Origin: a virus
Taxonomy: Duplodnaviria > Caudoviricetes
DNA length: 41,517 bases
Reading direction: 5' to 3' (one strand)
IMG/VR virus record: IMGVR_UViG_3300033417_000026
Coordinates: 1-41,517 of that record
Shown: positions 1,269-30,415 of the stretch, one piece after another
How the letters are laid out: every line of letters starts with the position of its first letter
Numbering within the stretch: position 1 is the first letter of the stretch
Program-made: the position numbers and the translations under genes
Notes under the pieces: generated by a model
What the model saw: the letters and a program-made list of their open reading frames with translations, nothing else
What the model was told of the DNA's origin: nothing
Database searches by the model: none

Positions 1269-2366
1269 TCATGACAGAATTGATTCGCAAACCGTGTCGT
1301 CACTACATTCTCCGATGTAATGAAACACATCCTTCACGCCTTCAAGAGAATCGCCCGTCGCGAACAAGTCCGACGGATAACCCCATGCCGTCCACCTCTT
1401 TACAAGTTGAACGTTGTACACGGTATCGTAATCGTCATCTCCCGCTTCGCCGTCGTTACAATGCGCAAACTTCGCGTAGAAGTCCCACAGTAAATTCGGG
1501 AATTGATTGTCCGGCATCGTGATTTTGATATGATCCGGCGACCGGAACTCAAACTCGCCCCGATTGTGATTCGTGTCTACAAATTGAAGCGCACCCGGAA
1601 CCATTACCCAGATGTTATTCGCAACCCCCTCGACGGTGTCGATAGTCGTGTCCAGAATGTAGCCGTTTATTTGCGCAAGTTGACCGGCGTTGAATCCAGC
1701 ATCGTTGCAACAAGCTATTGACTTCATTATCGCGTACCGCCTCAACAAACCGGCCCCGATTTTCACCGGCATCATTCCGCCAAGTTCCGCGTCGGTCATG
1801 TCCTCTTCCATTACGATCTCTCCCAAAGGGTTGATCTTGTTCTCCGTAGTCTGGAAAAGAGGAATTACCTTAGGGCCTGCGACACCACCGGCGAAATTGC
1901 CAACAAATCCACCAGAGGAAATTAGCGTTACCAAATCTCGATTTAGAGCAGACTTCAATGACTGCATACCGGAATTGATAACCTCGGCAATGTGGTTACT
2001 TTTCCCTTCACAGAAGTCCCTCATTTGCTTATATTGAAAAGTAAACACCTCCGACCTCCGTTCCTGGTCGATTGCAAGACTTTGAAACTGATAACTCTTT
2101 GGAGTTACCGGATCGCAATAAGTCCCCGGCGTCGAGTCGTATGCCGAAAGAGGAGTCCTTTGCAAAAATCGGATTCGGGCGTCGTGCCTTTTACCGTCGC
2201 TTCCCGGATCAAGCTCTACGGAAAACCCCCCGGCGTTCCGGTTCTGATCCGAAAGTACCCAAGCCAGCGTACCCTGATTCGGTAGAATCGCAGTCGCCGA
2301 CCTGATTTGCTCGCTAAACAACTTTTGCGTTAGCGTGTAACAAAATTCATTCATGTCAACAGCCAT
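1269..2366 (-). CDS. Major capsid protein (probable HK97 fold)
   Basis: 365 aa, directly after a coiled-coil scaffold gene, with a dedicated leader and a downstream hairpin. Size and synteny fit. Confidence 0.75.
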   Translation of the reverse strand: MAVDMNEFCYTLTQKLFSEQIRSATAILPNQGTLAWVLSDQNRNAGGFSVELDPGSDGKRHDARIRFLQRTPLSAYDSTPGTYCDPVTPKSYQFQSLAIDQERRSEVFTFQYKQMRDFCEGKSNHIAEVINSGMQSLKSALNRDLVTLISSGGFVGNFAGGVAGPKVIPLFQTTENKINPLGEIVMEEDMTDAELGGMMPVKIGAGLLRRYAIMKSIACCNDAGFNAGQLAQINGYILDTTIDTVEGVANNIWVMVPGALQFVDTNHNRGEFEFRSPDHIKITMPDNQFPNLLWDFYAKFAHCNDGEAGDDDYDTVYNVQLVKRWTAWGYPSDLFATGDSLEGVKDVFHYIGECSDDTVCESILS

Positions 2367-2386: not shown

Positions 2387-2439
2387 TAAAAATGGGCATC
2401 CTCTTGGATCATACCCGTTATGGCAGGTGGGAAACCTCT
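2387..2439 (-). promoter_or_regulatory. Structured leader motif, copy A (upstream of major capsid)
   Basis: AGAGGUUUCCCACCUGCCAUAACGGGUAUGAUCCAAGAGGAUGCCCAUUUUU; matches copies B-D. Confidence 0.75.
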
Positions 2440-2479
2440 TTCTACTTCTTCGGCTTAATTGTGCCGCAACCTCTACACT

Positions 2480-3325
2480 TCATTTTCTTTTCATTGCGCG
2501 TTCCGCTCGGTCTAATGCGTCTTGTTGTTCAACAGTAAGTTTTCTGGAAGGCGGGGTTCCGTTTCCCAATTGAGATGTTTCTGGAATTGTAATCGACCTC
2601 TGGAATTGTTGTGTGCTTCCTAACAAACCCTCCTTATCAATTATATCTTGCAGCGCCTCTGGAATTTTCAAAAATTCCGTCTTGCTTTTGGAAACTCTTT
2701 TCGCCGGGTTGCCCTTTTCACGAAGCTCGTACTCCGCGCCCTCTTTGGTTACGTTGTAATTCCCGTATAGTTTGTCCTTAATTAAGGAAAACGTCTGCTT
2801 TGGTGAAACCTTTAGATTTTTAAGGGTTCCTAATTGTTCAATGATGTGCTCATCCCGGAACCAATTACTCTTGAAAGTTTCAATCTCCTGCTCCTTAGCG
2901 AGTAGTTTGTCCTGAATATCCCTTTCCATTGCAGTCTTTGACGCCTCGACCGCGTGAAGTTGCTCCTGAATTTCGGAAACGTCGTCGTTTGTCCTGCCAG
3001 AAATTGCCGCGTTGTAATCTTTAATAAATTCGTCTAAGCTCCGCCCTTCGGCGTACTTAGAAGCATCAAGTTTAGCGGCCTTTCCTAACTTTCTTAATAG
3101 GGAATTGTAAACAAGCCCCTTAGCTTGCTTCTCAAGCTCAGGCTTCATTTTTGAAACCTCGGTAGTAACGTCCGGAAGTTCGTTTTTGACCTGCTCTCTG
3201 ATCGCGGTCATGTATGTTTCCGCGTCTTCCTCTGGTTTTAGGTCTTCGTCACCGTCAAGGTAAGCATCTAACTTCTCCGTTGGGAAGTCAAGATGTTTCA
3301 GAAGTTCTTTCAGCTTTTTGCTCAT
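2480..3325 (-). CDS. Capsid scaffolding protein
   Basis: 281 aa, highly charged and helical/coiled-coil, immediately upstream of the capsid gene. Confidence 0.65.
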   Translation of the reverse strand: MSKKLKELLKHLDFPTEKLDAYLDGDEDLKPEEDAETYMTAIREQVKNELPDVTTEVSKMKPELEKQAKGLVYNSLLRKLGKAAKLDASKYAEGRSLDEFIKDYNAAISGRTNDDVSEIQEQLHAVEASKTAMERDIQDKLLAKEQEIETFKSNWFRDEHIIEQLGTLKNLKVSPKQTFSLIKDKLYGNYNVTKEGAEYELREKGNPAKRVSKSKTEFLKIPEALQDIIDKEGLLGSTQQFQRSITIPETSQLGNGTPPSRKLTVEQQDALDRAERAMKRK

Positions 3326-3350
3326 TGCTCATAAATCGCGCTGATTTTAA

Positions 3351-3406
3351 TGAAAAGGTATAAGCATAACCTTCAATGCGTACTCTTGGTAGGCCCGCCG
3401 GCCTCA
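3351..3406 (-). promoter_or_regulatory. Structured leader motif, copy B (diverged; upstream of scaffold)
   Basis: UGAGGCCGGCGGGCCUACCAAGAGUACGCAUUGAAGGUUAUGCUUAUACCUUUUCA. Confidence 0.55.
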
Positions 3407-3412
3407 TTGTTG

Positions 3413-3757
3413 TCATTTAATCTTTCGTGGACGGCCCCTCTTAACAATGCCGACAATTTCTTTTTTTTTCTCTTGTACCGGCTCTGGAATCGGCTCCGAT
3501 CTTGTTAAGTTAACGTCAATCGGTTCGTCAGGTTCCCTTGTGTTATCAGGTACGGCCTCCCTATTAACCTTCATAAAAATCTTAGCCTTTGAACTCTTTG
3601 ACACCCTATTTGAAATATCCCGCTTCGCGCTCTCCTCAGGGCCACCGCTCAATACTTGAAACTCGTCTTTCCTGTGTTGTTTCCAATACCTGTACGAGTT
3701 TACAGATACCCGCGCGTTCTTTCCCGTACTCCTGTTTTTTAGGTAAATCCAAGCCAT
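3413..3757 (-). CDS. Basic hypothetical protein with C-terminal AT-hook-like KRGRPRK
   Basis: ATG 3757 (MAWIYLKN) just downstream of a consensus promoter. The ORF track start at 3775 lies inside that promoter. Confidence 0.65.
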   Translation of the reverse strand: MAWIYLKNRSTGKNARVSVNSYRYWKQHRKDEFQVLSGGPEESAKRDISNRVSKSSKAKIFMKVNREAVPDNTREPDEPIDVNLTRSEPIPEPVQEKKKEIVGIVKRGRPRKIK

Positions 3758-3772
3758 TAGTGCAAATTTAGG

Positions 3773-3804
3773 CAAATGTAAGTAAACTATTTGTATTTTC
3801 CAAA
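3773..3804 (-). promoter_or_regulatory. Bacteroidota primary-sigma promoter
   Basis: TTTG-N20-TACATTTG, matching the -33/-7 consensus TTTG...TAnnTTTG. Confidence 0.75.
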
Positions 3805-3814
3805 TTAAGAACGA

Positions 3815-4648
3815 TCAAGCCGCCTCCTGTTCCTCTAAAAAGAACGGAATCGCCTCATGCCGACATCCGTACCCCCCTCTGTAAACCGAAAAATTGTCTG
3901 GATTTGTTCCCGGTATCATTCCAGCGCCGTTGGCGTAAGCCCATGCTATTTCAGTTTCCAGGTCCTCAAGAGTCAAAATACCCCCGAAGTCGTTCACCCA
4001 CCTGACACATTGCGGGCGCGAATCTTTCACAAGGCCCCCTATGTACCTAAATGCGTTCATCTCAAACTTCTTTCCAACTGCCTGATGAATTAACCCCTGG
4101 TATTGTTGCGTTGCGTCTATTGCCACCTGCCTTACTTGTCTTTGTAAAGCCCCGCCCACTCTTTGTTGTAGCTCTCTCTGTACGTCGGTCAAAGAACTTC
4201 CCAATATCAATCCCCTGCTTAAAATCTCTTTTATCGGCTGAATGAACGCCTTACCTAATCCCTGGTTAGTTAACTGATCTAAAGTATTAGAAACCGCCCA
4301 TTTCTGAAACTTAGTTAAGGGTAATTTACTAATAGGTATCTTCGCCACCGCCTCAACCATCCTCGCGCTCTGCTTTTCCAGCACCGGAAACACTTGTAGG
4401 TACTCGCTTACCGCCTTTAAGTAACCGCTTTTTTTAAGCGTCTTGAATATCTCGGCCTCGATCTTGTTAATTAACTCTTGAGAATACCTGGTAGCCTTTA
4501 AGCTCCCTGCTTGTGTGTCGAAATTGCCTATGTACTTTTGTAAGACTGAAATTATAGTCTTCTCAATATCTGGAATCTTCCTTAACAGCTTCCTTGCCGC
4601 CTTCTCTGATAAGGAATCGTTTTGCGCTATAAGATCAGAAATCGCCAT
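3815..4648 (-). CDS. Head morphogenesis / minor capsid protein (SPP1 gp7 / Mu gpF-like)
   Basis: Follows the portal. Carries YIGGLVKDSRPQC and a C-terminal GGYGCRH motif typical of this family. Likely start MAISDL at 4648. Confidence 0.75.
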   Translation of the reverse strand: MAISDLIAQNDSLSEKAARKLLRKIPDIEKTIISVLQKYIGNFDTQAGSLKATRYSQELINKIEAEIFKTLKKSGYLKAVSEYLQVFPVLEKQSARMVEAVAKIPISKLPLTKFQKWAVSNTLDQLTNQGLGKAFIQPIKEILSRGLILGSSLTDVQRELQQRVGGALQRQVRQVAIDATQQYQGLIHQAVGKKFEMNAFRYIGGLVKDSRPQCVRWVNDFGGILTLEDLETEIAWAYANGAGMIPGTNPDNFSVYRGGYGCRHEAIPFFLEEQEAA

Positions 4649-6326
4649 TTTCGTTTTTATCTTTATTCTCGTTCTTTTCACTTAATTCAGACAAGATCGA
4701 ATCAAACGCCGGCGCCTCTACGCTAAAGGCTTGCAATTCCTTTTTGAGTTTCTCACTTAAAACTTGCAAATCCGCTGCCATGAACGCCTCCGGCCCCATG
4801 TCTAGCAAGAGTTTGTTCGCCTCTGGGACTACGTGATTCACCCGCCGATATTCGCTCTTGTCCATCGTTCCATTAGCAAGAAACATATCCCTTTTTGAAG
4901 TTGGGTAAAGGTAGAGCGGCTCGGTAATTATAGCCAATTCCTCAATTCTCCTGGAAACTTCGTCGGTCGAAAACCTCCTTTTTATGTAGTCCAGGTAAAT
5001 ATTTAGAATTACACCATAAGAAAGATCGTTTGTAACGGCGTCCCTATACTCTGCCAACAGTTCCAGCTCGTCTTTAATCTTAAAAGAGATAGGCTTTATG
5101 ATCTTAATCTCGTCTGCCTTTCCGGGAAACTTCATCTTGAGCATCCAATTCAACGTCTTTCTCATTATGCCATCAAACCAATACCCCTGAAAGTTGAATA
5201 ACATTGAAAACTTGTCTTCCCGATCTTTGTCTTTAGCCGTGCCGCTTTGCGCCATTTCGATAAATCTCTGGTGTAATGCCTCTTGTGCCTTTACCAAGTC
5301 TTTGTCGCTGACTTCGCCCGAAAGAGATATTATAGCAGTATCCGGATATGCGAAGTCCAGCGCCTTCGTGTTCGTTTCGTGCCTCTCGTCTAAGATAATT
5401 CCTTTGTAAACGCTTGTTGGTACGACTTTCCCGGTTCCTTTACACGTCTTGCACTTCTCTACAAATTCGCCGCTATCGGTAAAGATTCGCCCATCTCTAC
5501 ACCCCTGCGCCGTGCATGGTAAGGCTCGCATAATCCTAATAGGATATGCGCTCGTAACCATAGCTCCCTTGTGAAGTTCTTTGTTTAATAGCGCGTGATT
5601 CGCATGAGATATAAATGGTGAAAAGTCCGAGTCGAACCACTTTTTTTCAGTGCCGTCAAAATCAACCTCTCCTGTGGGTATTCCTTTCAAAACAACGTAA
5701 GGCACTTCTCCTAAGCCATGCGTTGCGACCGAAATAAGCTCATATCTGTCTTTCGACACAGGAACGTAAATAAGATACTCTAAATCGGTGAGTATCTCAT
5801 AGGCATCCAGACTACTCGCGCCTACTTTTACTTTCTTTTTTGACCTCCAAATGAAAATATCGTCGCTAACGTATCTGATCTGTGATGAATGAACCAATTC
5901 CATGTCCGGGCCTGCCTCAAGCAGTTTCACCACAAGGCACCCGTTAGGGTCTTCCAACTTTCTCCAAAGTACGGTCTTGAAATAGAACTGGTTCCCGGAA
6001 AGGGAGTCGAACTGCTTGTCATTCCACCAGCTTAAGAAATAATCAGGTGCAACAAGCGACCAATTACTTTCGGATAAGGCTCTATACAAGTCCGTATATC
6101 CTCTATAATAAATCCCCTGCGTAATGGCCTGATAATTCCGCTCCCGGTACTGAACGACGTCGGCCTCCTCGTTAGGAAACGCATTTAGGAATAGGTCTTT
6201 AGGAACCGCCCCCCGTGAGTGAACGACAACCCTCCTAAAAACCTTATCCCATTTGAGTTTCAGCTCCGGCTCCCTCAAACCGGCAATGCCCTTTTTTAAG
6301 AGTCCAGCTACCTCGTCAAAGGTCAT
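4635..6326 (-). CDS. Portal protein with an inserted Cys4 zinc-finger-like segment
   Basis: About 563 aa from ATG 6326 (ATGA overlap). HGLGEVPYVVL resembles the SPP1-type portal H-x-l-G-x-V-P motif; later AQSGTAKDKDR. Lies upstream of the gp7-like gene. Confidence 0.75.
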   Translation of the reverse strand: MTFDEVAGLLKKGIAGLREPELKLKWDKVFRRVVVHSRGAVPKDLFLNAFPNEEADVVQYRERNYQAITQGIYYRGYTDLYRALSESNWSLVAPDYFLSWWNDKQFDSLSGNQFYFKTVLWRKLEDPNGCLVVKLLEAGPDMELVHSSQIRYVSDDIFIWRSKKKVKVGASSLDAYEILTDLEYLIYVPVSKDRYELISVATHGLGEVPYVVLKGIPTGEVDFDGTEKKWFDSDFSPFISHANHALLNKELHKGAMVTSAYPIRIMRALPCTAQGCRDGRIFTDSGEFVEKCKTCKGTGKVVPTSVYKGIILDERHETNTKALDFAYPDTAIISLSGEVSDKDLVKAQEALHQRFIEMAQSGTAKDKDREDKFSMLFNFQGYWFDGIMRKTLNWMLKMKFPGKADEIKIIKPISFKIKDELELLAEYRDAVTNDLSYGVILNIYLDYIKRRFSTDEVSRRIEELAIITEPLYLYPTSKRDMFLANGTMDKSEYRRVNHVVPEANKLLLDMGPEAFMAADLQVLSEKLKKELQAFSVEAPAFDSILSELSEKNENKDKNENGDF

Positions 6327-6886
6327 ATATCTAAAGCAGCAACTATCCCCGGAACGTGAACCGGCACGATGTGATCGAAGTCCTGGAAGGTAATCGTAGC
6401 CATCCAATGCGTCGTACCGTCCTGGTTGTTATCCTCCACAACCCGCCGGGCGTTGAATGAGAACCTTTTTACAAACCCGTAAATCCGCTCATCGCACGTA
6501 ACGAACCCTACCTGATACTTACGATAATTCGAGTTTATGTTATTGTAAAAGTCGTCCTGCGTGAATCCGAGGGTCAAGTCTTCCGCATTGAAGTCGGTAA
6601 TCTCCCAAGTGTGCGTCCTGGACATTATTTCATCCGGCACACACGAGTCGATCTTCTTCGCCCCCGCTTCCGCTTCTGGAATTGATCCTATAATATGCCC
6701 AAAAGGAGTGTGAAACAACTGACCGGCGTACTTCTTCGTCGCGTACTCCGTTGGGTCAGTTGGGTCAGTAAGGTCATCGGTGGCGCATAGCATGAAAATT
6801 AATCCCTGCCCTCCACCGGAAAGCACCACTCTATCGCAAATTGGGATAATAGCTGGCGGTGTAACTGCACATTGCAAGCAATCCAT
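6323..6886 (-). CDS. Probable major tail tube protein
   Basis: 187 aa, beta-rich, acidic, with its own promoter element and leader motif, as expected for a high-copy virion protein. Inference from size and context. Confidence 0.55.
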   Translation of the reverse strand: MDCLQCAVTPPAIIPICDRVVLSGGGQGLIFMLCATDDLTDPTDPTEYATKKYAGQLFHTPFGHIIGSIPEAEAGAKKIDSCVPDEIMSRTHTWEITDFNAEDLTLGFTQDDFYNNINSNYRKYQVGFVTCDERIYGFVKRFSFNARRVVEDNNQDGTTHWMATITFQDFDHIVPVHVPGIVAALDI

Positions 6887-6909
6887 AACTGTATGTTTAT
6901 TAATTAGTT

Positions 6910-6957
6910 AATGGCATCCCTAAAGGGATCATGCTCGTATTGCAGGTCGGCGCCTCA
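6910..6957 (-). promoter_or_regulatory. Structured leader motif, copy C (upstream of tail tube/portal operon)
   Basis: UGAGGCGCCGACCUGCAAUACGAGCAUGAUCCCUUUAGGGAUGCCAUU. Confidence 0.75.
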
Positions 6958-6961
6958 CGTA

Positions 6962-6969
6962 CAAAGATA
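6962..6969 (-). promoter_or_regulatory. Bacteroidota -7 promoter element
   Basis: TATCTTTG 5 nt upstream of the motif's GAGG. The -33 element is weak. Confidence 0.6.
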
Positions 6970-6980
6970 ATACTTTTTTA

Positions 6981-8000
6981 TCAGTCACAATCCCCTGTTT
7001 CTCCGTTACCTGATCCACAGGGCTTCTTTAGTGTCGCTTGTATGTGCCACATTCTCCCAACTGTGTTATTTTTCGATATATCTGAAATCTCATTGAACCT
7101 GAAAAGAATCGCCGAACCCGCCTCAAGCAGGAATATCAGAACCTCGACACCCCCGAACAAAGCAGTAAGTTGACTCTTTTCGTACACCGGAACGGGGTAG
7201 ATAGAAAGCAGATACTCATCCTTTGTTGTGACTTTAGTAACTACTTCATTATCATTGGTTTCTCTTTCGTAAGTAGTCCTTATGTGTTCCAAAACGCCCC
7301 GGTAACGTTTTTGGTTTACAAAAGCAAGATTTTGATTCCCAACGAACTGATCTTCACGGTCGGGATCGGCAATTCCGTAATACTGCCGTTCACAGTCGAA
7401 CCGGGCGTAATCGGCCCTGATTCTAAAGGTTTCCTCACACGCGGGATCAATGACCTCAAAGGGTTCCGAGTAGAAAAAGGCAGTAGTTGTGGGAGTGTCT
7501 TTGTAGGTTATCTTAAAACGAAAGCAGTCGCCTATTTCGTACAGCTCCTCGCTCACAATTATTTTAATGTTCTGGTAAGTAAATCCCCCTGATCCACCTC
7601 GGACAAATCTATTACCACCAAGCCTTCCAACGGCCCAATTTGTCGCTATATCCCCGAAATCGCCTTCAATTATTTCGCAGTCCTTATCCACCAGGTCTAA
7701 GTCTATATACCAGTCCCCCGTTGTGCCGTCATTCCAGCCGTGTTCTAAAGTGTCGCCGTTGACTAAGTCCCGAACCCTAAACTGCATGTGAATTGTGTCG
7801 CCAATAATTACAGGTTGTTGATACTCTTTATCCCCTGCACACAAATTACAATTCCATCCTGTGTCACATTCGTCTTTCCAACCTGGAGGAGTCGGCTCTC
7901 CGCACATGATCTTTTGTGGAAGGTCAAGATAGATCGTATAGCTCTCCCTATCTGACTGTACGTCCGCGTTTGTGTAAGTAAAATTTGATTCGGTACTCAT
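6981..8000 (-). CDS. Minor tail / baseplate structural protein
   Basis: 339 aa, acidic and Cys-rich, coupled by ATGA overlap in the operon after the tape measure. Confidence 0.55.
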   Translation of the reverse strand: MSTESNFTYTNADVQSDRESYTIYLDLPQKIMCGEPTPPGWKDECDTGWNCNLCAGDKEYQQPVIIGDTIHMQFRVRDLVNGDTLEHGWNDGTTGDWYIDLDLVDKDCEIIEGDFGDIATNWAVGRLGGNRFVRGGSGGFTYQNIKIIVSEELYEIGDCFRFKITYKDTPTTTAFFYSEPFEVIDPACEETFRIRADYARFDCERQYYGIADPDREDQFVGNQNLAFVNQKRYRGVLEHIRTTYERETNDNEVVTKVTTKDEYLLSIYPVPVYEKSQLTALFGGVEVLIFLLEAGSAILFRFNEISDISKNNTVGRMWHIQATLKKPCGSGNGETGDCD

Positions 8001-9355
8001 GGCGGGAAGGCTTTTTTAGCAACTAAAGATACCCGGTACTGCCCTCCCATATTTAATTCACTTGTAACGACTTCAAAAGTTACCGAATTAGTTGGAAATG
8101 AAGCCGGTACGTTGTCTAATTTAAGCGAAGTTGATTCGGTAATTCCGTCCGGCGGAGTAGGGCCTCCATAGGTACTCTCCTCCTCAATGTTCTCAAAAGA
8201 GTAGAACCTCGAATCTATCATAGCTAAGACTAAAAACGGATCTGGATCTGTTTTCGTAACGGTAATAAACAAGTTCCCGGTTTCCTCATCGCAAATCCTG
8301 GTAATAGGGTTCCCGGATGCGTCCTCTACTACGATTGAATCTAACGTATTAAACCCGGTATCATTTTCGTAATCCCTGACTTCGATATATTGCTCTAAAA
8401 AAACCCTGTCAAAATGATCGTCTGCTCTACCAGTTAAAGAGGCCGGCAAGAATAAAACCTGCTGCCATTCCAAGACTAAATCTAACCCTTCCCAGCTTTG
8501 TACCTTCCCGGCCCCGTCTGGTTCGTCATGTCTTAATCTGAATACAATATCGTACCTTCGTACACCCGCCCCCGGAGTGGATTGTACTATTTCGCCGTCG
8601 GCTAACTCGGTCTGGAATAATACCTCATTGTTCGCCGCGTTCCTGACCGTAAATACAAGGTTACTTAACTGATCGTCGTAACTCCCCGATCCGTACAGGG
8701 CCTGAATATCAGTATCATAACCAGCTGAATCTACTTCAAAGTAACTCCTTATCCTTTCCTGTACAGTAGCAAGGATATTCCCGCCTATGTTTGAAAATGC
8801 CCGGTCGGAGAGTTGCTGATCTAATAAGGTAGGAATAATTGGTTCTATCGGGGCATCTCCTGTTTGAATTAATCCAGAAATATAGGCAGTATATAAATCG
8901 TCTGTGGAATTGTTGATAATTACTGCAAAGTAATACTGCTCTCCTGCTGCAATTTGGGTGAAATCTACATGAAAGCTCATTGTTGTCTGTACCCCGACAA
9001 GGCTCTTAACGGTAGGTTGTTTTAATATCCCGTCCGTAATCGCGGCCCCGGCGTTGGTGACTAAATCTACGTCGTGGCCTTTCTTTACGAAGTCGTAAAA
9101 CTTTGCCTGCTCGTTTGCCAAGTCAACCCGTAACGCCCATACCCTTACCTTATCGGCCACCAGAACGTCCGCGCCCGATACCTTAAATTCCACCTTAGTG
9201 TCTTCCGAAAGACTCAATAAAGTAGTCGGTCCTGCTGAAACAGAAAGGATAATCGAGTCAAGAGTATGATCCGGCGCGGCCCCGTAAGGCCCCTCCCCCC
9301 AGAACCTTCCTGTAACCGCCGTTGTATCTCCTAATCTTTTTTGAATATGACTCAT
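7997..9355 (-). CDS. Minor tail structural protein
   Basis: 452 aa, beta-rich, in the tail-tip operon. Confidence 0.55.
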   Translation of the reverse strand: MSHIQKRLGDTTAVTGRFWGEGPYGAAPDHTLDSIILSVSAGPTTLLSLSEDTKVEFKVSGADVLVADKVRVWALRVDLANEQAKFYDFVKKGHDVDLVTNAGAAITDGILKQPTVKSLVGVQTTMSFHVDFTQIAAGEQYYFAVIINNSTDDLYTAYISGLIQTGDAPIEPIIPTLLDQQLSDRAFSNIGGNILATVQERIRSYFEVDSAGYDTDIQALYGSGSYDDQLSNLVFTVRNAANNEVLFQTELADGEIVQSTPGAGVRRYDIVFRLRHDEPDGAGKVQSWEGLDLVLEWQQVLFLPASLTGRADDHFDRVFLEQYIEVRDYENDTGFNTLDSIVVEDASGNPITRICDEETGNLFITVTKTDPDPFLVLAMIDSRFYSFENIEEESTYGGPTPPDGITESTSLKLDNVPASFPTNSVTFEVVTSELNMGGQYRVSLVAKKAFPP

Positions 9356-10269
9356 CTTTCAACAATAGCTATTAACCAAAGCTCAAAAGTTGTTTCAATA
9401 TCAAACGGAGCGCCACCCGAAGACACTAAAGAGATATTCACGTAAAGCTCATCTCCGATCGATATATCTGTAAAGTCCCGTGCAGTAGCACCGCCGTCGT
9501 TAGAAAAGTAGAAAGGTCTTGTCTTGACGCCGTCGCCAACTTTGTAATATCTGCCTTCCATGAAAACCTTTGGCTCCGTTCCTTCAGCTACCCCGGAAAT
9601 ACTACCTAAAGCGGGTTGAATTGTAAGCACATCCGCGCTCACAGGAAGGCCGTCCGCTGAATCAGAAGTTATAGCTATCGGCGTGAACTTCTGTGAAGAC
9701 TCTATACAACACGCCCCGCCTAAAGTAATCTCTGGTGGAGTTACCACAACGTAATACCAGAGAGCCTTATTCATTGAGTAGAACGAAGCCACCTCGTTTG
9801 CGAAGTCATTAGGAGCGGATATGTGCGTCCTCCGAAATTTGTTGAATTGAACTTCGTTACCCCCATTGATGAAGTCGTCAATGTCGTGAACACAAATAAT
9901 CTCTACTAAAATGGTTGCCTGTGTCGCGGACGTGTACTCGAATGTCGCCGAAAGAACCGAATGATCCACCATCGCCGAATTTGGCGCTATTAAAGTCATT
10001 GGGTAAGTAACTCCTGTTGACTTTCCCTGCGTGTTAATAAACCAGCCCATCGGATTTAGTTCTGGACTTATCTCCGGTAGGTCGGTCGGCCCCCATTGTG
10101 AAGGATTAAACCAAACGTCCTTATCTGTAAAGTTGTCCACCGACGTTAGCGTTACCTCAATTTCAAGTGTGTACGTTTCCAAAATAGTGAACGTATCTAT
10201 CAAAGCGGGGATAGGATTGTAAACCTGGTTCCCGGTAGTAATCTGCTCGCTTGTAACGGTAACGGCCAT
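9352..10269 (-). CDS. Minor tail structural protein
   Basis: 305 aa, beta-rich, in the tail-tip operon. Confidence 0.55.
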   Translation of the reverse strand: MAVTVTSEQITTGNQVYNPIPALIDTFTILETYTLEIEVTLTSVDNFTDKDVWFNPSQWGPTDLPEISPELNPMGWFINTQGKSTGVTYPMTLIAPNSAMVDHSVLSATFEYTSATQATILVEIICVHDIDDFINGGNEVQFNKFRRTHISAPNDFANEVASFYSMNKALWYYVVVTPPEITLGGACCIESSQKFTPIAITSDSADGLPVSADVLTIQPALGSISGVAEGTEPKVFMEGRYYKVGDGVKTRPFYFSNDGGATARDFTDISIGDELYVNISLVSSGGAPFDIETTFELWLIAIVER

Positions 10270-11981
10270 TATATCTTCCCGTTTATGGTCATCTCCTTTC
10301 GGTCAAAGTTAATCTGAATTTCGTCAATACTTCCCGACTTCTGGTTCCCAAAGAACATCAGTTTAACAGTCTTCGCCGGGTCTGCTGCTGAAAGAATGTC
10401 GCAACTGTACTTTATCCTCAACTTAAAATCCCTTGTTCTTAAAAGTCCTAATCTCGGATTTTCAATCTCCCAAAAGTTATGATATAAATTACCTGCTATG
10501 GTCATGTTTAACTTACTCCCTGCGTATTGAGCAGGCCCTAATCCCCGATCTTCACATACGTAAGGGTAATTGTAACCATTATTCCCTCCTAATCCCTGAC
10601 CCTTGTAATTTCTAACCTTCGCGTTATTAAGATTCACCCCGTCCCAAATGAGTAGTTTAGGCTGCATAGCCGTGCCATTATTAAGTAAAAGGTTCTTATC
10701 CGCTTCTTTCAGCGCACTTGTGAAAATAGGTATGATCTGAATAATCCCCGTACTTAAAACGTCCTTATCAATGTTGTCATCTCGGAATCTGGAATGACCG
10801 AACCCCGGACTGACAACCTTTTCGCCCTTTTGTCTTGACGTGTATGGATCGTTCCACTCCACTATTTCATCGTAGTACCCGTGAGCCTCGAAGCCAACCC
10901 AATCGACTGCATCCTGCGTGTAGGCGAACTCTAAAAAGGAAGGTGGCGTATCTCCTGAAAAGGAATAACATTGCTCAATTAAATCAGCCTCATCTAATTG
11001 AGAAGTGTCAACAAAAACATCAGGAAGGTCAAAGAAATCCCTTCGTTCAAAAATAAGAGTGGTTCCCTGTATTGTCCACTTCGCGTTGAAAACAGTTTTG
11101 AGGCTCTCCATTAATTGATCCCCCGTTACGTTCACCAAATTCAGATCAATTAATTTCACGTTCTGATCCCTGGTTCCCTTTTCAAATTGTGCATTGAAAT
11201 ACATCGTATCGTAGTAAGGACTTGATGAATCGTTAAGAATTGAACTCTTAAAGTCAAGTCCACAAATCGTACATACATTTTTAATGTAATTCCTAAGCAA
11301 CGGAGATGGGTGCTTCCTGTTGCACCCTATTATATTGTCGTCTAAATCTTTTAAGAATAATTTATAGCTCTTGAATAATTGGTTATTGTTAAGTCCCGGC
11401 GGACAGTTCACAAAAGGTATTGCACAAATGACTGTAATAATTACACTAATTATCAATACAATGGGTTGTAAAATAAAAAGAATTAGATAAATGTACCCCC
11501 CATAAATGTAAGCCAAGTATTGTAACGCGGAAGGGCGAAATTCTAAACAATAACCAACCCTCGGATGGCTTTGGCTTTTGAAATTCGTCTTTGCCGTATT
11601 CAGTTTAACCCTGTCGCTCTCGTACAGTAGCGTTGATCTGAAACAATCTAAAGGCTCCACTTCCTCAATTATCGTTACATCAACTTCGCACTCTCCTTCA
11701 CACCAATCAACTGTTTCTTGAGTTATTAATCCCTCAAATATCTCAAACCCGCAACAGTCGTCGAATAACCGCGCCCTGACGTTAAACTTAGGCGAAGTGA
11801 ATGGGTTGTTTAGAATCTTATTTTTGATTAATTCATACGCCGATCCTGTGAGTTTTAGAGTTCCCGAATAACTCTTAACCGGACTGCCTGACTCGTCTAA
11901 ATCTCTTAAAGTCAAAGTAACCCCGTTAAATCCAGATACTTCGGACTGCGGAATTTCTTTATTATCTAAAAATAAAATCAC
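10269..11981 (-). CDS. Tail tip / hub-like protein with an internal hydrophobic segment
   Basis: 570 aa directly after the tape measure. Ends in a hub-like strand pattern (GSIDEIQINFDRKEMTINGKI). Confidence 0.6.
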   Translation of the reverse strand: MILFLDNKEIPQSEVSGFNGVTLTLRDLDESGSPVKSYSGTLKLTGSAYELIKNKILNNPFTSPKFNVRARLFDDCCGFEIFEGLITQETVDWCEGECEVDVTIIEEVEPLDCFRSTLLYESDRVKLNTAKTNFKSQSHPRVGYCLEFRPSALQYLAYIYGGYIYLILFILQPIVLIISVIITVICAIPFVNCPPGLNNNQLFKSYKLFLKDLDDNIIGCNRKHPSPLLRNYIKNVCTICGLDFKSSILNDSSSPYYDTMYFNAQFEKGTRDQNVKLIDLNLVNVTGDQLMESLKTVFNAKWTIQGTTLIFERRDFFDLPDVFVDTSQLDEADLIEQCYSFSGDTPPSFLEFAYTQDAVDWVGFEAHGYYDEIVEWNDPYTSRQKGEKVVSPGFGHSRFRDDNIDKDVLSTGIIQIIPIFTSALKEADKNLLLNNGTAMQPKLLIWDGVNLNNAKVRNYKGQGLGGNNGYNYPYVCEDRGLGPAQYAGSKLNMTIAGNLYHNFWEIENPRLGLLRTRDFKLRIKYSCDILSAADPAKTVKLMFFGNQKSGSIDEIQINFDRKEMTINGKI

Positions 11982-14900
11982 CTTGCAAGTCTGTTTATCT
12001 TGTCTGCCTTTCCGATCCTGTTCTCAATTACCCTCACAAGCTCATCGCCTTTCACCATCCACTTGTGAGTGTTGATAGATATTTGTCCTGGTAAATCTCT
12101 GATAGCGTTCTCCACAGACTCCAATCTTCTCTCTACACCAGCCGAACTTACCGGCTCGTAATCTCGCATAAATTCGTTATATCCGATATATCTATCTGAT
12201 ACCCTGTTTAATACATCTGGTCGGGCCCTTCCTGATCTGATCGCTTGTAATGTCGGCTTAAATCTTCTGGTTTCTAAAGCAGTCATTACACTTTCCCCTC
12301 GACTTACTTTCGCGTGGATCGAATCCGAAGTTCCGGTTCCTCCCCCTTTAATGTCGATCTCTCCCTCTTTGAATGTAGGTATAGCCGCGCCCGCTAAGGC
12401 CCGCGCCTTCGCTAATCCCGCGACAAGAGCTATCAAAGTGGCCGCTATTGTTATCGGAGCGGCTATGCCACTTTGTGCCGCTGCCTTCGATATCGCCACC
12501 GCGAAATTAGCTACCAACTCAACTACCGCTAACGCCTGCTGCTGCCTTACAAATTTCTGCCTTTGTTCGTTTAACTTGTCTAATTTCTCCTGCTCTGCTT
12601 GTAAAAGTTCTGCGTTACCCCTATCCGCAAGCTCCCGAACCCTGTCCACGTTCTCTTTTTGCCGTCCTATCCTCCCTTCGACTTCGCTCAATGCCAAGCC
12701 AACAAGAAAGTTGGCCAACTCTAACCCCGCGCTTTTGATCTGCTCAAATTCAGCAATCCTATCCTCTACGCGCTGTTTATTTAACGCTTTAATCTTATCT
12801 ATCCTGTCTTGCTCTATTTTTTCTAAAGTCGCGGACAATAATCTCGCGTTATCAATTTCCTTACCTGCCAAAACACTCTGAACTAAAGCCTCCTCGTTGA
12901 TTAAATCAATCTTATCCTTATGGCTGAATCGCCTTAATTCTAACTCTGTGTTAATAGATTGTAAACGAATCCTTAGTAGCTCTAGCTGCTTTCTCTTTTC
13001 CTCATCTATTTCTCTTTGCGCGTTGTCGTCAACTAATTTGTTTACTGCATTTAATCTATTGACCGTTTCCGATATGATTAAGTCGTTTATTTGCCCTATC
13101 TGATTCGTGAGGCTTTCGATTCTTTCCTGATCCCCGGCGCTTGCCGCTGCTGCCAACTGCTCCTGAACAGAAGCTCTTTGTTTTTCAAGTTCCTCAATTA
13201 CCTTGTTTATCTCTGCTATTATCTCCGTTGTTTGCCTGGTTAATTCATCTTCAATTAAGGCAGTATTGGCTTGCAAAAGTCTGGATACCAATGCCTTCTC
13301 TTGGTTTAATATCGCCGTTGTCGTGTCCGTTATTATTTTCAGCCTTTCCGCTGCAAACTTTTTAGTTATCAATACCTTCGCCTGTTCTGCTGCTTCAAAT
13401 CCTTTTGTTCCTTTTGCAAATAGCTTCTGCTGCTCGTTAATCGCCGATATTTCCTCTTTTAATCTTGCATCAAGCCCCGCTAACGATCTTAGCTCCTGAT
13501 CCTTTATTAATTCGATATTCAAGTCCCTTATTACATTTGTCAATGACTGCACCGCCGCCCGTCTTTCTTCAATAGCCTTTAGCTCATCTTCTGCCTTCTC
13601 TTTTCCTTTTTCCGCATCTTCTGCTTTTTTCTTTGCTTCAAGGGCCTTTAGCTCATCTTGAATCGCTTTCCTACCTTCCTCGCGGGCTTTAGATCTTGCC
13701 CGTTCCGCTGAAACCGCATCTTTTGTAACCTCCTCATTTTTATCTTTATACAATCCCAATAGCTTAGCCGCTCCTTTTGCCGCATTACCCACAGCGTTAA
13801 ATGCCGTTTTAAGCGCTCCAAATTTGTTAATTATTTCCCCTGTGGTCTTAATTGCGGGAACGAATATCTTGTCCACAACGAACTTGAAAATAACCGAAAA
13901 TATCTTTAATGGAATCATTAAAAACTTCATCGCAAACCCTACGGCCTCCATTACCTTCGCAACTGTACTTGTTTTTTTCGCCCCCTCCTCTTGTACCTCA
14001 TTAAACGACCCAAACGCCTCCACTAAGTCGCCTATTGGAGCGAATATATCTCCCAAAATTTCGCCGTAAAACTTAAATGCGTCAATTACCGGGTCCGCGT
14101 TTCTCAAAACCGCGGTCAAGCCCTGAACTAATCCCCTTAAACCTTCGCTTACCCCACCACCTTCAAGGATAAGCCCGGTATAAGCGTTCTGTAATCTTTT
14201 TAAGTCGCCGTCTAAATTGTCCGTTTGAATAGACGCTTGCTCGTAAGCCGCATTTGTTCCAGTAATCCCCTTTGTTAATTCATCTAACCTCGATCTGGAT
14301 TTAATCAAAGTTTGTATTGCAAGCAGATTTTCTTCTCCAAAGGTTTTCGTTAAAAAAGTTATGTCGTTAACTTTTGGAGCAAGTAACTCAAGCTCCCCTC
14401 CCAATCCCACAAATTCGCGCCCGCCCTCTGCTGCCGCCTTTTGCATCTTTATTAAAACTCCCCGCATGTTTGTGCCTACAATGTTTGCCTGCGGAATTGA
14501 CTCGCCTAACAATTCAACGGCTGCCACAGACTGCTCGACACTTAACCCCGCGCTTTCTGCGACACCGCCAAATTTCGCTAACGCCTCGCTTACAAACGGT
14601 ATTTCCTTCGCGCCTAACTTTGACGCCGCCGCCATAACATTAATCACCCGTGCCGATTCCGAGGCCGGTAATCTGATTTGATTTAATGTTTCAGCTAAGA
14701 CTTGTCCAGATTGAGCTAAGTCTAATCCGCTCGCTTCTGATAAGGTTACCGCCGCTTTCGTGACTTCTGCCAATGCGTCCCGGTTTGCTAATAATTCCGG
14801 CTTCGCCGATGCTATCAACTTAAAAGCAGTTAATGCCTGCTGTGCGCTTGTTGTCGTAGTTACGCCTATCGCCTTTGCCTGTTCTTTGAAAAATTCCAGG

Positions 14901-15421
14901 TCTTCGCCTGTGGCGCCTGTTATGGCTGAAAGTTCTGAAAGTCCCTTTTCAAAGTTTTTCAGAATAACTATCCCGCCCCTTATTTCTCTGAAAAGTAACC
15001 CCGCTGCTGCTGTTGCTGTTAAAAAAGGAACCGCTGACTTTAACACATTCCCTAACCCGGCCATTGTCTTTGAAGTCTGGCCCGTAACCTTGCCTAATTG
15101 CGCTTGTGTTATTTGTAACTGTCTTGACGCGTTAGCGTAAGCCCGGCTGCCAATAGTAGCTGAATTTACGGCCTTATTTAATAAGTCCTGTTTGGCCCGT
15201 AACCCGTTAACCGTGTTTGTTTCCTGCCTTAAAGCGCCGTTCAGTTTGGCCTCTGCCTCGGTAAGCCGTTGGTTCGCCGCCGTCCATTCTGCTGTACCCT
15301 TTTTAGCCTTCCCGACCTCGGCCTGATACTTAGATACGTCCGATATTAACGCCTCCACCGCGCCCTGAGCGGACTTCGTGTCGAAATCTAATACGTAAAT
15401 CTGTTTGATTAATTCAGCCAT
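11978..15421 (-). CDS. Tail tape measure protein (TP901-family core)
   Basis: 1147 aa, Ala/Leu/Lys helical. Contains FEKGLSELSAITGATGEDL and AYEQASIQTDNLDGDLKRL, typical of the TP901 core, plus the C-terminal GTGTSDSIHAKVSRGESVM motif. Confidence 0.92.
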   Translation of the reverse strand: MAELIKQIYVLDFDTKSAQGAVEALISDVSKYQAEVGKAKKGTAEWTAANQRLTEAEAKLNGALRQETNTVNGLRAKQDLLNKAVNSATIGSRAYANASRQLQITQAQLGKVTGQTSKTMAGLGNVLKSAVPFLTATAAAGLLFREIRGGIVILKNFEKGLSELSAITGATGEDLEFFKEQAKAIGVTTTTSAQQALTAFKLIASAKPELLANRDALAEVTKAAVTLSEASGLDLAQSGQVLAETLNQIRLPASESARVINVMAAASKLGAKEIPFVSEALAKFGGVAESAGLSVEQSVAAVELLGESIPQANIVGTNMRGVLIKMQKAAAEGGREFVGLGGELELLAPKVNDITFLTKTFGEENLLAIQTLIKSRSRLDELTKGITGTNAAYEQASIQTDNLDGDLKRLQNAYTGLILEGGGVSEGLRGLVQGLTAVLRNADPVIDAFKFYGEILGDIFAPIGDLVEAFGSFNEVQEEGAKKTSTVAKVMEAVGFAMKFLMIPLKIFSVIFKFVVDKIFVPAIKTTGEIINKFGALKTAFNAVGNAAKGAAKLLGLYKDKNEEVTKDAVSAERARSKAREEGRKAIQDELKALEAKKKAEDAEKGKEKAEDELKAIEERRAAVQSLTNVIRDLNIELIKDQELRSLAGLDARLKEEISAINEQQKLFAKGTKGFEAAEQAKVLITKKFAAERLKIITDTTTAILNQEKALVSRLLQANTALIEDELTRQTTEIIAEINKVIEELEKQRASVQEQLAAAASAGDQERIESLTNQIGQINDLIISETVNRLNAVNKLVDDNAQREIDEEKRKQLELLRIRLQSINTELELRRFSHKDKIDLINEEALVQSVLAGKEIDNARLLSATLEKIEQDRIDKIKALNKQRVEDRIAEFEQIKSAGLELANFLVGLALSEVEGRIGRQKENVDRVRELADRGNAELLQAEQEKLDKLNEQRQKFVRQQQALAVVELVANFAVAISKAAAQSGIAAPITIAATLIALVAGLAKARALAGAAIPTFKEGEIDIKGGGTGTSDSIHAKVSRGESVMTALETRRFKPTLQAIRSGRARPDVLNRVSDRYIGYNEFMRDYEPVSSAGVERRLESVENAIRDLPGQISINTHKWMVKGDELVRVIENRIGKADKINRLAR

Positions 15422-15438
15422 GAGGATTAATTTAACTC

Positions 15439-15487
15439 AAAACACAGGTTAAAACCTCATGCGCTGATAGGCAGGTGCGCGGCCTCT
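15439..15487 (-). promoter_or_regulatory. Structured leader motif, copy D (upstream of tape measure)
   Basis: AGAGGCCGCGCACCUGCCUAUCAGCGCAUGAGGUUUUAACCUGUGUUUU. Confidence 0.75.
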
Positions 15488-15501: not shown

Positions 15502-15509
15502 CAAATATA
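15502..15509 (-). promoter_or_regulatory. Bacteroidota -7 promoter element
   Basis: TATATTTG upstream of motif copy D. No clear -33 element. Confidence 0.5.
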
Positions 15510-18396: not shown

Positions 18397-19220
18397 AGCG
18401 ATATTGGCACACAGTCGGCCCACAAGGCCCCGGCGTGGAGTTTGATCTTCTCTGCGTCAAAGATAATACTTCCTAACAAATCTATTTTCTCTGATAAATT
18501 ACTCATTCTCTTTATTCGATGGTTTGGCCGGTTCTTTCCGTAAAAGCCGGCATGATAACACAACGGCTCCTTAGGGAAAAGGTTCATCATTCCCGTTGAC
18601 CAGCCGATTCGCCTGATTAACCCGTCCTGTTCACAGAAGTTGTCATTTAACGGAGTGTCGAACTTGCTCATATACCCTTTTGGATCATTGTAATACGATC
18701 TGTTTACGTGAGGCAAAATTAGGTTTGTTAGAACATCTGCTGTAAACGAAACTCCTATACTTTGATAATGACTCGCCGTAATAAGGAAGGCGTTCCCGGA
18801 AAAGTCGCTCCGCATATCCTCGTTTGGGTTATGATCCACCGAGGCTATCCGGCAAAACGTTAACATTTCACAGTAAGCGGCGTGCCACTTAAAATACTGT
18901 TTGTGGATCATTACGTCCTCCTCAATTAACGTTACCCTTTGCGAGTGCATCTCGCCTAACTTGGCCCCGATCCTGTACGCCTCTAAGATATTCCGTGACT
19001 GCTTCGCCAACGGACTTGCCTGGATTCTGGTATCTGGTCTTAAAATTTCACCGTGAAAGTCTTCCAGAAAACTATTCGCCATCTTTAGCCCGTCCGCGAA
19101 AGCTCCAATATCAGCGGCGAAAATGTAGTAATTCTCCTTTGCCTCGTCTGCTTTTTTGATCTGCCATAAGCACCAATAAAGCATTTCCGGTCTGCGGTAA
19201 ATTGGGATAATTACAATCAT
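18393..19220 (-). CDS. GT-A fold glycosyltransferase
   Basis: N-terminal IVIIPIYRRPEML and a DxD-equivalent TLIEEDV. Confidence 0.75.
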   Translation of the reverse strand: MIVIIPIYRRPEMLYWCLWQIKKADEAKENYYIFAADIGAFADGLKMANSFLEDFHGEILRPDTRIQASPLAKQSRNILEAYRIGAKLGEMHSQRVTLIEEDVMIHKQYFKWHAAYCEMLTFCRIASVDHNPNEDMRSDFSGNAFLITASHYQSIGVSFTADVLTNLILPHVNRSYYNDPKGYMSKFDTPLNDNFCEQDGLIRRIGWSTGMMNLFPKEPLCYHAGFYGKNRPNHRIKRMSNLSEKIDLLGSIIFDAEKIKLHAGALWADCVPISL

Positions 19221-19909
19221 TTGTAAAGTGTTGGAATATCTTTATTACAAGAAAAATGCCACGTGTCTGCTACGTTGTATCTTTGTTTTAATCTATATCC
19301 GATTCTTTCAAGAGTCATTTTTAACTGCCTCCAAGTTGGTAGGTGCATACACTCGACAAAAATCTCTGGCTTATCTCTTTTGAAAACCTTCATTCCTCCC
19401 TTAATTACCTCAAGCTCGTGGCCCTCGACGTCGATCTTAACCAAAGATAATGAAATTTCTTCAAAATAATGGTCTATTGTTGTAACTAATATTACCCCCT
19501 GATTTGTTGAAATTGTAGTCCCTCCTGTTGAAACCTGATCCCCAAGTGGGGGTATGTTAACCAAGCACTTCCCCCGTTCTGATCCCATTGCCATTGGCTC
19601 TAAGGTTGTGTTCGTTACGCCGTTTAAGTCCATATTTTTTTTGTACCATTGCCGGTTTTCCTCTGTTGGATCAAAAGCAAAAATCCTTTCAGCAGGGCAA
19701 TACTTACCAAAAAATACCGAGTGATGACCGTTATGGCAACCTATATCGGCGTAATTGCCTGAAATATTTAATCGTTCAATGGCATCCAGCATCCAATGTT
19801 CATAGAAAGCTCCGTATCTTATTTCCTCGCTTGCAAGGTGGTGATCGTTACAATAAAGGCTAACCCCCTTATTTAACCGGACAAAGTGTATTAAAGCGTA
19901 TGGCCGCAT
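19217..19909 (-). CDS. FkbM-family SAM-dependent methyltransferase
   Basis: DIGCHNGHHS, FAFDP and LVKIDVEGHELEVIKG motifs. Confidence 0.92.
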   Translation of the reverse strand: MRPYALIHFVRLNKGVSLYCNDHHLASEEIRYGAFYEHWMLDAIERLNISGNYADIGCHNGHHSVFFGKYCPAERIFAFDPTEENRQWYKKNMDLNGVTNTTLEPMAMGSERGKCLVNIPPLGDQVSTGGTTISTNQGVILVTTIDHYFEEISLSLVKIDVEGHELEVIKGGMKVFKRDKPEIFVECMHLPTWRQLKMTLERIGYRLKQRYNVADTWHFSCNKDIPTLYK

Positions 19910-19913
19910 GGTT

Positions 19914-20804
19914 CTATATTAACTCTTTTTTTAGCCTGGTTTCAAAATCGGTCTTATCTCTTAAAAAAGCCGCCCGCGCCGCCGGGCCCGTGTCTAATTT
20001 CTTCGCGGCCAATACCGCCTTACTTATATCCTCTGATCTAACTTCAAACTTGTTAGATAATCCCATAGACTCGCCGATGTGCCCCCTTACTCTTAATCCT
20101 GTTGCGTCTGTTATTAGTTCGCTCATGGGCGCGTAATCAGACGTAATTATAACAGCCCCGACACTTCGGGCTTCGTTTATGTAATGCCCGAATCCCTCTG
20201 CTTCCGAAGGGCAAATATGAAACTTGTGGGAGTTCTGTAAAGCTCTTAATTCCTCATCTGCTAAATACTCGTAAATATACGTAATGTTTTTTGATTCCAC
20301 AAGCGACCTGTAATCCGCTCTCCCATGACTGACAATCGTCAAAGGCTCTGAATAATTGAACGCATCAATAACCGCCTCTGTGTTTTTTTGTCTTGACTTC
20401 CCGATCAAATGGAGCCACTTCTCATCCTTATCCTGTTCGGCTATATGTCTATCCTGCGAAGTGAATCCCGTGTAGATAGTATTAAATCTTAGCCCGGAAA
20501 AGATATTAAACGCGTGCAATGACTTCGCTAATATAGTAAATCTTTTGTTGTACTTTAACCAATAAGAATAAGTCCATTCCGGGTTCGGGAACCAATAATT
20601 TTTCTTGAATAAATGCCACCAACTGATTTTAGGAATTTCAAAGTGTATTCCAATATCGCACCTTTTAGGAAGGTTGTGGTAAACAACAAAATCTTTATTT
20701 AACGCGGCGTGAACTACGTCGGCGTCAGTCTTTAGTCCCACTCCGTTATTTGGGTAAAGTAAATTGACGCTTGGATAAATCAAATTAACTGTTTTTGTTG
20801 GCAT
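19914..20804 (-). CDS. GT-B (GT4 / group 1) glycosyltransferase
   Basis: CPSEAEGFGHYINEARSVG (EX7E motif), and GKSRQKNT. Confidence 0.9.
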   Translation of the reverse strand: MPTKTVNLIYPSVNLLYPNNGVGLKTDADVVHAALNKDFVVYHNLPKRCDIGIHFEIPKISWWHLFKKNYWFPNPEWTYSYWLKYNKRFTILAKSLHAFNIFSGLRFNTIYTGFTSQDRHIAEQDKDEKWLHLIGKSRQKNTEAVIDAFNYSEPLTIVSHGRADYRSLVESKNITYIYEYLADEELRALQNSHKFHICPSEAEGFGHYINEARSVGAVIITSDYAPMSELITDATGLRVRGHIGESMGLSNKFEVRSEDISKAVLAAKKLDTGPAARAAFLRDKTDFETRLKKELI

Positions 20805-21129
20805 TATCAAATCTTTGAATTGTTCTGATTAAATACTCAAGACTATCGGATCGTAAACTGTAAAAAACTTCCCGCCCGTGCTTTTGCCCGTGCACCCATC
20901 TTAACGCCCGAAGCCTTTTGAGGATATGGCTCATTACCGTTTTATTTATCCCTAATATTCCGGCCAACTCCCCCGGCGTCACGGGTTGGCGCATCGAAAT
21001 AAGGTGCATCGTGTCCGCGACGTGCCTCTTTTGTCCTTCTGATAGCTCTTTCAGCACCCCCGGCGTGCGGGCGAATAGGGCGTGGTAGTTATCGGATAGT
21101 GTGTCGGAGTGGTTCATTGTTAACTCCAA
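20785..21129 (-). CDS. ArsR-like winged helix-turn-helix protein
   Basis: TPGELAGILGINKTVMSHILKRLR...GREVFYSL. The start may be 21117. Confidence 0.8.
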   Translation of the reverse strand: MELTMNHSDTLSDNYHALFARTPGVLKELSEGQKRHVADTMHLISMRQPVTPGELAGILGINKTVMSHILKRLRALRWVHGQKHGREVFYSLRSDSLEYLIRTIQRFDNANKNS

Positions 21130-30193: not shown

Positions 30194-30415
30194 TCATAGT
30201 TTCATATTTTTGTTAATATTTAACTCCCTTTCCATCAAATCTTTGCGTTCAATTTCGAGCGATTCAAGCGCGGAGATAATGGCCCGCCTGGTATTAACTC
30301 TCACATTTTTTCCCTGGAAATAACTCCGCACCGCGACCATCGAAACCCCCGCCTTTTCGCAAAGAATCCCCAATGCCCCGTTCCCGAAATGTTTTACAAA
30401 CTCTTGCTGTGTCAT
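30194..30415 (-). CDS. Cro-like small HTH protein
   Basis: LCEKAGVSMVAVRSYFQG; first gene from the divergent promoter. Confidence 0.65.
   Translation of the reverse strand: MTQQEFVKHFGNGALGILCEKAGVSMVAVRSYFQGKNVRVNTRRAIISALESLEIERKDLMERELNINKNMKL

Follow-up and report, generated by a model that had tools for sequence, protein, structure and literature searches.

An uncatalogued variant of the phage leader pseudoknot, predicted in front of four virion genes of one phage genome

The leaders of four virion genes in the genome of a single uncultured phage carry a real repeated element, predicted to be an uncatalogued variant of the leader pseudoknots of phages. At family level, sequence comparison supports its place in the H-type class, where the loop of a hairpin pairs with downstream sequence and the pairing is kept by compensatory changes. 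The genome (below, the window: the whole stretch analysed) is a 41.5-kb virus record, IMGVR_UViG_3300033417_000026, of 41,517 nt and rated complete. New here is the presence of four copies in one genome, including those of the tube and tape-measure genes. Further, there are tRNA-adjacent copies and, in one clade, a terminator that competes with the knot.

The four genes are on the minus strand and encode the major capsid protein (365 aa, 1269..2366), a scaffold-like protein (281 aa, 2480..3325), a probable tail tube protein (187 aa, 6323..6886) and the tape measure protein (1147 aa, 11978..15421). A preliminary description, made from the letters of the DNA, had given these names, and they are backed to varying degrees. 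The tape measure is recognised by PHROGs/Pfam. For the capsid there are Atlas look-alikes among phage capsid clusters and a 704-protein family, and for the tube there is an Atlas lead (PF25595, 0.90). The scaffold is named by position and synteny, and a family search gave no match for it. From TAnnTTTG boxes in the leaders, and from Shine-Dalgarno-like sequence in just 2 of 30 leaders, we infer a Bacteroidota host; to our knowledge, Bacteroidota make no use of Shine-Dalgarno sequences. Searches found no host record for the phage and no prophage match in GTDB.

As had been claimed, the four copies all lie in leaders of virion genes and in the sense direction (minus strand), and each ends 17-27 nt before the ATG. 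Their cores are at 2409-2438 (A, capsid), 3373-3405 (B, scaffold), 6929-6956 (C, tube) and 15457-15486 (D, tape measure), and RCCURC and AUGA are common to all of them. The pattern GAGGN{5,7}RCCTRCN{9,13}TGA, which is post hoc as it was derived from the copies themselves, has exactly four matches in the window, A-D, and none in 100 dinucleotide shuffles. A GAGG-N4-14-CCT hairpin is present in 4 of the 19 window leaders of at least 45 nt, which are copies A-D alone.

Each copy is predicted to form a compact H-type pseudoknot, with a first stem (S1) and a loop-downstream pairing (S2), followed by a second knot or a hairpin. In copy A (2394..2438, minus strand) the predicted pseudoknot at 2414-2438 has S1 AGGU/ACCU and S2 CCC/GGG, and is followed by AUGA and the hairpin AUCC/GGAU. 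Copy B (3352..3405, minus strand) would pair AGGC/GCCU in S1 and GCG/CGC in S2, then AUUGA and the hairpin AAGGU/ACCUU. Copy C (6914..6956, minus strand) has S1 AGG/CCU and a weak S2 of 2 bp, or 4 if bulged, ahead of AUGA and the hairpin AUCCC/GGGAU. In copy D (15431..15486, minus strand) there are two GAGG..CCU units, with S2 GCGC/GCGC and possibly UUUAA/UUAAA. A possible additional unit, seen by eye, lies upstream in the capsid leader (2452..2478, minus strand; S1 GUGU/GCAC, S2 GGUU/AGCC), 1 nt past the scaffold stop, and is missed by our strict descriptor.

The 3' stems UCC/GGA, UCCC/GGGA, GGUU/AACC and AGGU/ACCU, on which the earlier structure was built, are confirmed in the sequence. That structure was incomplete, however: the conserved core is the 5' GAGG/CCU stem with a loop that pairs downstream. 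The pairing of GAGG with RCCU, the downstream pairing of the loop and the -7 boxes near C and D had all been missed. The 3' stem is unit 2 of a tandem, where GAGG..CCU recurs in D and a hairpin is found in A, B and C. In unit 1, S1 measures 3-5 bp and S2 3 (A), 3 (B), 2 (C) and 4 (D) bp. S2 is weak within the window, with 2 of 24 partner swaps tying with the true pairing, so the pseudoknot there is carried by homology. The closest homologous support comes from L127, L128 and L361, which have a similar GC-rich S2 and an L3 of 7-8 nt. Further, an outer extension of the 3' hairpin competes with S2 of unit 1 in A (GGGU/GCCC), C and D. Nested MFE folding, which is blind to knots, gave mixed folds for the copies, and MAFFT misaligned them.

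Near C and D the leaders contain a -7 promoter box. The box of copy C, TATCTTTG, is of Bacteroidota type and lies at 6962..6969 (minus strand), 5 nt upstream of the GAGG. Given the spacing of 4-5 nt from box to start site in the available part of PMC6847099, the predicted start falls at or next to the first G of copy C. For copy D the box, TATATTTG, is 15 nt upstream (15502..15509, minus strand). Two more -7 boxes at 3763..3780 (minus strand), presumably a promoter, precede a 120-aa ORF and are likely the promoter of an ORF-scaffold-capsid transcript with B and A internal. Copies A and B are just downstream of stop codons, within this one predicted transcript.

Close relatives were not found in IMG/VR, searched with the capsid alone or its close alignment, or among GenBank phages. 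A metagenome scan matched the window itself, L125 and L126, the last of these without the leader. L125 is the closest usable relative (capsid 49% identical), and its capsid leader has two GAGG-loop-RCCUGC units. Sub-alignments of the capsid family gave 156 viral loci; with L124-L125 added, these were reduced to 53 distinct (dereplicated) capsid leaders. The strict descriptor finds 61 H-type units in 37 of them, usually in tandem. Median values are 2 for L1, 0 for L2 (range 0-2 nt), 5 for L3 and 5 for S2, and L3 is rich in A (173 of 309 nt). The commonest core is GAGG (21 of the 61 units), followed by GGGG (10), GTGG (9) and others. The loop-downstream pairs are free in sequence, for instance GUCAA/UUGAC, UGCAGA/UCUGUA, UUUGAAA/UUUCAAA, or GCGUUC with GGACGC or GAGCGC. 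The deepest split of the capsid tree has GAGG units on either side, subject to a long-branch caveat. Under the strict descriptor the unit is absent from 16 of the 53 leaders; some of these hold variants that the rule overlooks, and leaders of the L212-type clade are of another kind.

For the other genes the picture is more limited. By eye, units are present in the tail-tube leaders of L127, L128, L139, L156, L192, L193 and L195, and an automatic count gives 6 GAGG..CCT hairpins among 57 tube leaders, one of them within a tRNA (P 0.02). In scaffold leaders (1 of 54) and tape-measure leaders (1 of 20) the only GAGG..CCT units are the window's own, and a GUGG-type tandem was seen by eye upstream of the tape measure gene of relative G019. 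A core-pattern scan of viral contigs (118 loci, 22 of 64 parts) returned mostly coding or chance matches; L069, L094 and L117 were inspected and rejected. A permissive knot descriptor gave many false positives.

A few other leaders were noted among the relatives. In the long-capsid clade, the capsid leaders of L212-L275 (e.g. L212:9870-10000) have another conserved leader downstream of a -7 box: CCTCTCAC, a GUGC/GCAC-type hairpin and then CGC..GGCAGCG..UGCC, possibly another knot. The leader of L294:118-1074 (minus strand; relative G005) contains three near-identical tandem repeats of about 25 nt.

The pairing of loop and downstream sequence was assessed by swapping partners among 23 GAGG..CCT hairpins picked blind to S2. 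The true partners pair over 4.26 bp on average, compared with 2.78 bp after swaps, and 0 of 20,000 swaps reach the observed value. In a thinned set of 15 hairpins the means are 4.07 and 2.70 bp, and again no swap reached the observed value. Control hairpins behind a -7 box show no excess, either in 119 cellular (P 0.45) or in 109 unrelated viral cases (P 0.10), which is a small sample (2 of 64 parts for cellular genomes, 11 of 64 for viral contigs) and no proof of absence.

Covariation points in the same direction. In nine related first units the score of 0.364 is reached by 1 of 500 shuffles, a count that is not a probability, and it peaks at slide 0; the alignment has three rows out of register and is uncorrected for relatedness. 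In a gap-poor alignment of these nine units, 4 of 5 S2 pairs have changed on both sides. Further, 9 of 23 capsid-leader rows hold a tandem, where shuffles would give 0.13, as does 1 of 337 unlabelled leaders, with 2 and 2 in antisense; this count covers 23 genomes and 432 leaders, and one of the nine capsid rows is a fragment duplicate. A held-out locus, L361, fetched afterwards, has a terminator, a -7 box and two knots by eye. Together, the capsid-leader units, the tandem count and the swap test support the earlier proposal of a structured cis element of late virion genes whose position is conserved in related phages.

A -7 box is found in 25 of the 53 capsid leaders, and in 5 of these 25 the stem starts 4 nt downstream of the box, a distance that agrees with the start-site spacing of PMC6847099. 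Judged from the sequences, units commonly start where Bacteroidota-type transcription is predicted to begin, or straight after the 3' end of a tRNA. In the tube leaders of L156 (4341-4500), L193 (4431-4579) and L195 (4125-4287) a tRNA-Met lies directly upstream of tandem knots, with the first stem within about 5 nt of its 3' end, and the tRNA 3' cut could make the 5' end of the tube mRNA. Among capsid leaders the distance from unit to ATG varies from 21 to 120 nt, and the start codon is never covered by a unit. The common factor is a site where an RNA 5' end is or could be made, and not a fixed distance to the ATG.

Some relatives combine the knot with a terminator, defined as a GC-rich stem with a folding energy of at most -8 kcal/mol and a U run after it. 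Ten of the 37 unit-bearing capsid leaders pass this test. A stem of -13.5 to -26 kcal/mol with a U run overlaps the knot in 10 of 22 promoterless capsid leaders versus 0 of 15 boxed ones, and 9 of the 10 cases belong to one clade of the capsid tree. In these leaders (L140, L143, L154, L157, L164, L177, L189, L201, L206 and L210) the last pseudoknot excludes the long stem and U run, and the arms of the long stem co-vary across phages. This arrangement is a candidate attenuator between scaffold and capsid. The preliminary description had listed an attenuator among the roles of the element; the idea fits this clade but not the window, where 0 of 4 copies pass the test (hairpins of -7.6, -5.2 and -4.4 kcal/mol in A, C and D).

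The element has no counterpart in Rfam. As the earlier novelty claim implied, no Rfam 15 family matches the window at the gathering threshold (0 matches). At a relaxed cut-off the four leaders give just two snoRNA matches (E 7.7 and 9.6), and the sole match in 10 relatives is a tRNA. No published description was found in the literature searched, which lies largely outside subscription journals. The available part of PMC10690425 mentions candidates upstream of a major capsid gene; three of its six supplements gave no match to the element, and the two may overlap. The accessible text of PMC3997798 adds nothing on the element. Some familiar motifs could be set aside: a k-turn or k-junction, for want of an NC stem; a four-way junction with an outer closing stem, which by eye is not kept in relatives; and GAGG as a Shine-Dalgarno sequence, since it is paired and 37-80 nt from the ATG.

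Our preferred, and tentative, reading is that the units protect the 5' end of the mRNA and obstruct scanning by RNase E/G, by analogy with the leader of T4 gene 32. Should the RNA fold in this way in the cell, the pseudoknot and the second knot or hairpin would sit at the 5' end of the virion-gene message, with the A/U-rich start region downstream left unpaired. The paired 5' end and the coaxial knots would then hinder 5'-end-dependent attack by RNase E/G (and RNase Y). An upstream cut might turn the internal copies A and B into 5' ends, as in T4 gene 32, and the messages for capsid, scaffold, tube and the tail operon would last longer. This reading draws on a fold conserved with matched pairing changes, on the placement at 5' ends and on precedents, each from the part of the source available to us. 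The hindrance of RNase E scanning by H-type pseudoknots scales with the number of coaxial pairs in the knot (PMC9943677). The most stable T4 mRNA, that of gene 32, has its knot directly after a site cut by RNase E (-71; PMC3014915), and the Bacteroidota tested possess both RNase E/G and RNase Y but no RNase J or other 5'-3' exonuclease (PMC10234816).

Several observations speak against mRNA protection. S2 in the window is only 2-4 bp, with the ties among swaps given above, and in the accessible text of PMC9943677 small knots are modest obstacles and RNase E bypasses plain hairpins, which most of the second units in the window are. An obstacle needs no set sequence, yet GAGG is the commonest core and RCCURC and AUGA are shared by the copies. 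In only 5 of 25 boxed leaders is the stem exactly at the predicted start, the GAGG..CCT units in scaffold and tape-measure leaders are the window's own, and 16 of 53 capsid leaders are unit-free under the strict descriptor. In addition, the tape measure is a low-copy protein.

Because the knots of the window are small, RNase E passes plain hairpins and a conserved core hints at a reader, protein binding and antitermination or attenuation both stay in contention. The units may set translation by binding a protein, which would be either ribosomal protein bS1, at an enhancer or standby site, or a phage virion protein that regulates its own synthesis like T4 gp32. One motif common to four different virion genes, the GAGG/CCU core of 21 units and the RCCURC and AUGA of all four copies would suit this account, as would the knot and A/U-rich leader that form the T4 gene 32 operator (available part of PMC3014915). 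We nevertheless find it on the unlikely side, because S2 is free in sequence and the core varies too (GGGG and GTGG), the distance to the ATG is variable with the start codon uncovered, and PHROGs/Pfam identified no RNA-binding protein candidate in the window. Control of transcription elongation, by a put-like antiterminator in the nascent RNA or by the antiterminator arm of an attenuator, seems still more doubtful. The terminator cases come almost wholly from one clade, no window copy passes the test and no put-like sequence match exists in Rfam, although the overlap of terminator and knot in promoterless leaders, the competition of hairpin extension and S2 in A, C and D, and a promoter-proximal, two-module build of about 60-70 nt as in HK022 put (PMC9378689, in the part available) would all be accounted for. 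Further, A and B share one predicted transcript, whereas put acts over at least 10 kb.

Two other readings are improbable. The riboswitch suggested in the preliminary description fares poorly given the unconserved loops and the ATG spacing of 21-120 nt, and we hold a small-molecule riboswitch of the preQ1-I kind, or a self-cleaving ribozyme, to be improbable. In size and topology the units do resemble the preQ1-I aptamer, a small H-type knot with an AGAGG-like first stem and an A-rich L3. However, they have no conserved ligand-pocket bases, L2 is nearly absent, the leaders match no Rfam riboswitch or ribozyme even at E 10, there is no queuosine gene context, and the loop bases and A-tract pocket that are hallmarks of preQ1-I are seen in 0 of 7 leaders. 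A theta or HDV-like ribozyme (nested P1-P2-P3 with C in J4/2) fits 0 of 7 leaders, by a descriptor of our own for that topology that was used, like the preQ1-I hallmarks, without a positive control. The tRNA-adjacent copies recall the theta ribozymes of Bacteroidota phages (available part of PMC10879173), and the position directly 3' of a phage tRNA is true of L156, L193 and L195; in the window no tRNA gene was found. A late-promoter or protein site acting at the DNA level, with the pairing incidental, would make sense of the -7 boxes close to C and D, but the element lies downstream of the predicted start, half-site spacing varies, and compensatory loop-downstream complementarity is not expected of duplex DNA. 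We consider this the least probable reading of all.

Among known systems, the leader of gene 32 in T4, T2 and RB69 is alike in that a 5' H-type knot is followed by an unstructured A/U-rich leader, as is also found here; it differs in having a single knot, in front of one replication gene, as the gp32 operator (PMC3014915, from the available part). The units described here are in tandem, have a GAGG/CCU core and precede up to four genes per genome, and these are virion genes and not that of an ssDNA-binding protein. The RNase E obstacles of PMC9943677 are, in the available text, coaxial H-type knots of similar size in the 5' UTR that protect downstream cleavage sites, but they are sequence-independent and were engineered in E. 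coli reporters. The present element is natural, comes in several copies and is from a phage whose host is presumably a Bacteroidota, with few coaxial pairs in the window copies. The putL/putR sites of HK022 share two adjacent modules, a length of about 70 nt and a location downstream of phage promoters, but are two stem-loops at early promoters that bind the beta-prime zinc domain (PMC9378689, likewise in part). In contrast, our units are separate knots of late genes, also within transcripts and after tRNAs, and A and B are not promoter-proximal. Flaviviral xrRNAs have a three-way-junction ring fold and act against 5'-3' exonucleases. They too are tandem knotted RNAs that protect downstream RNA, and they block RNase J1 in vitro (PMC5760640, available part). 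An exonuclease roadblock of this type is disfavoured here since the Bacteroidota tested have no such exonuclease (PMC10234816, in the accessible text).

How Bacteroidota phages boost their high-copy virion genes found no answer in the literature searched. The element offers a defined RNA module that can be mutated, has compensatory variants in nature and occurs in four contexts of a single genome. Were it to stabilise mRNA, it would be a natural example of scanning obstacles, which have so far been shown mainly with engineered reporters, and could serve as a portable part for gene expression in Bacteroidota. The clade with knot versus terminator opens a possible timing switch to direct test. 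On a wider and decidedly speculative view, which we consider unlikely, GAGG/CCU modules might form a phage-wide RNA code for virion stoichiometry. Modules, one to three at the 5' end of selected virion-gene messages, would follow a promoter, the cut 3' end of a tRNA or a stop codon upstream and be read by a shared factor, with their number and stem strength setting how much is made from the capsid, scaffold, tube and tail operons. Such a module could also be rewired into a knot-versus-terminator switch.

Some features of the window itself are of separate interest. Its gene order is unusual (4635-8000), with the tube gene between tail genes and a portal-like gene and with tail genes before head genes; in other relatives the tube directly follows the capsid and is then without the leader element. 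Two back-to-back -7 boxes at 30450-30477, between the divergent genes 30194-30415 (minus strand) and 30504-31307 (plus strand, DUF559/HNH-like), are likely an early switch region. An FkbM methyltransferase gene and two glycosyltransferase genes (19217-20810 and 34510-35166, PHROGs/Pfam) are possibly involved in glycosylation of the virion or of a surface. Finally, the related capsids P0002-P0005, P0009-P0016 and L132-L141 are extended, either by 100-350 aa at the C-terminus or by a hydrophobic stretch of about 60 aa at the N-terminus, and the window capsid has neither.
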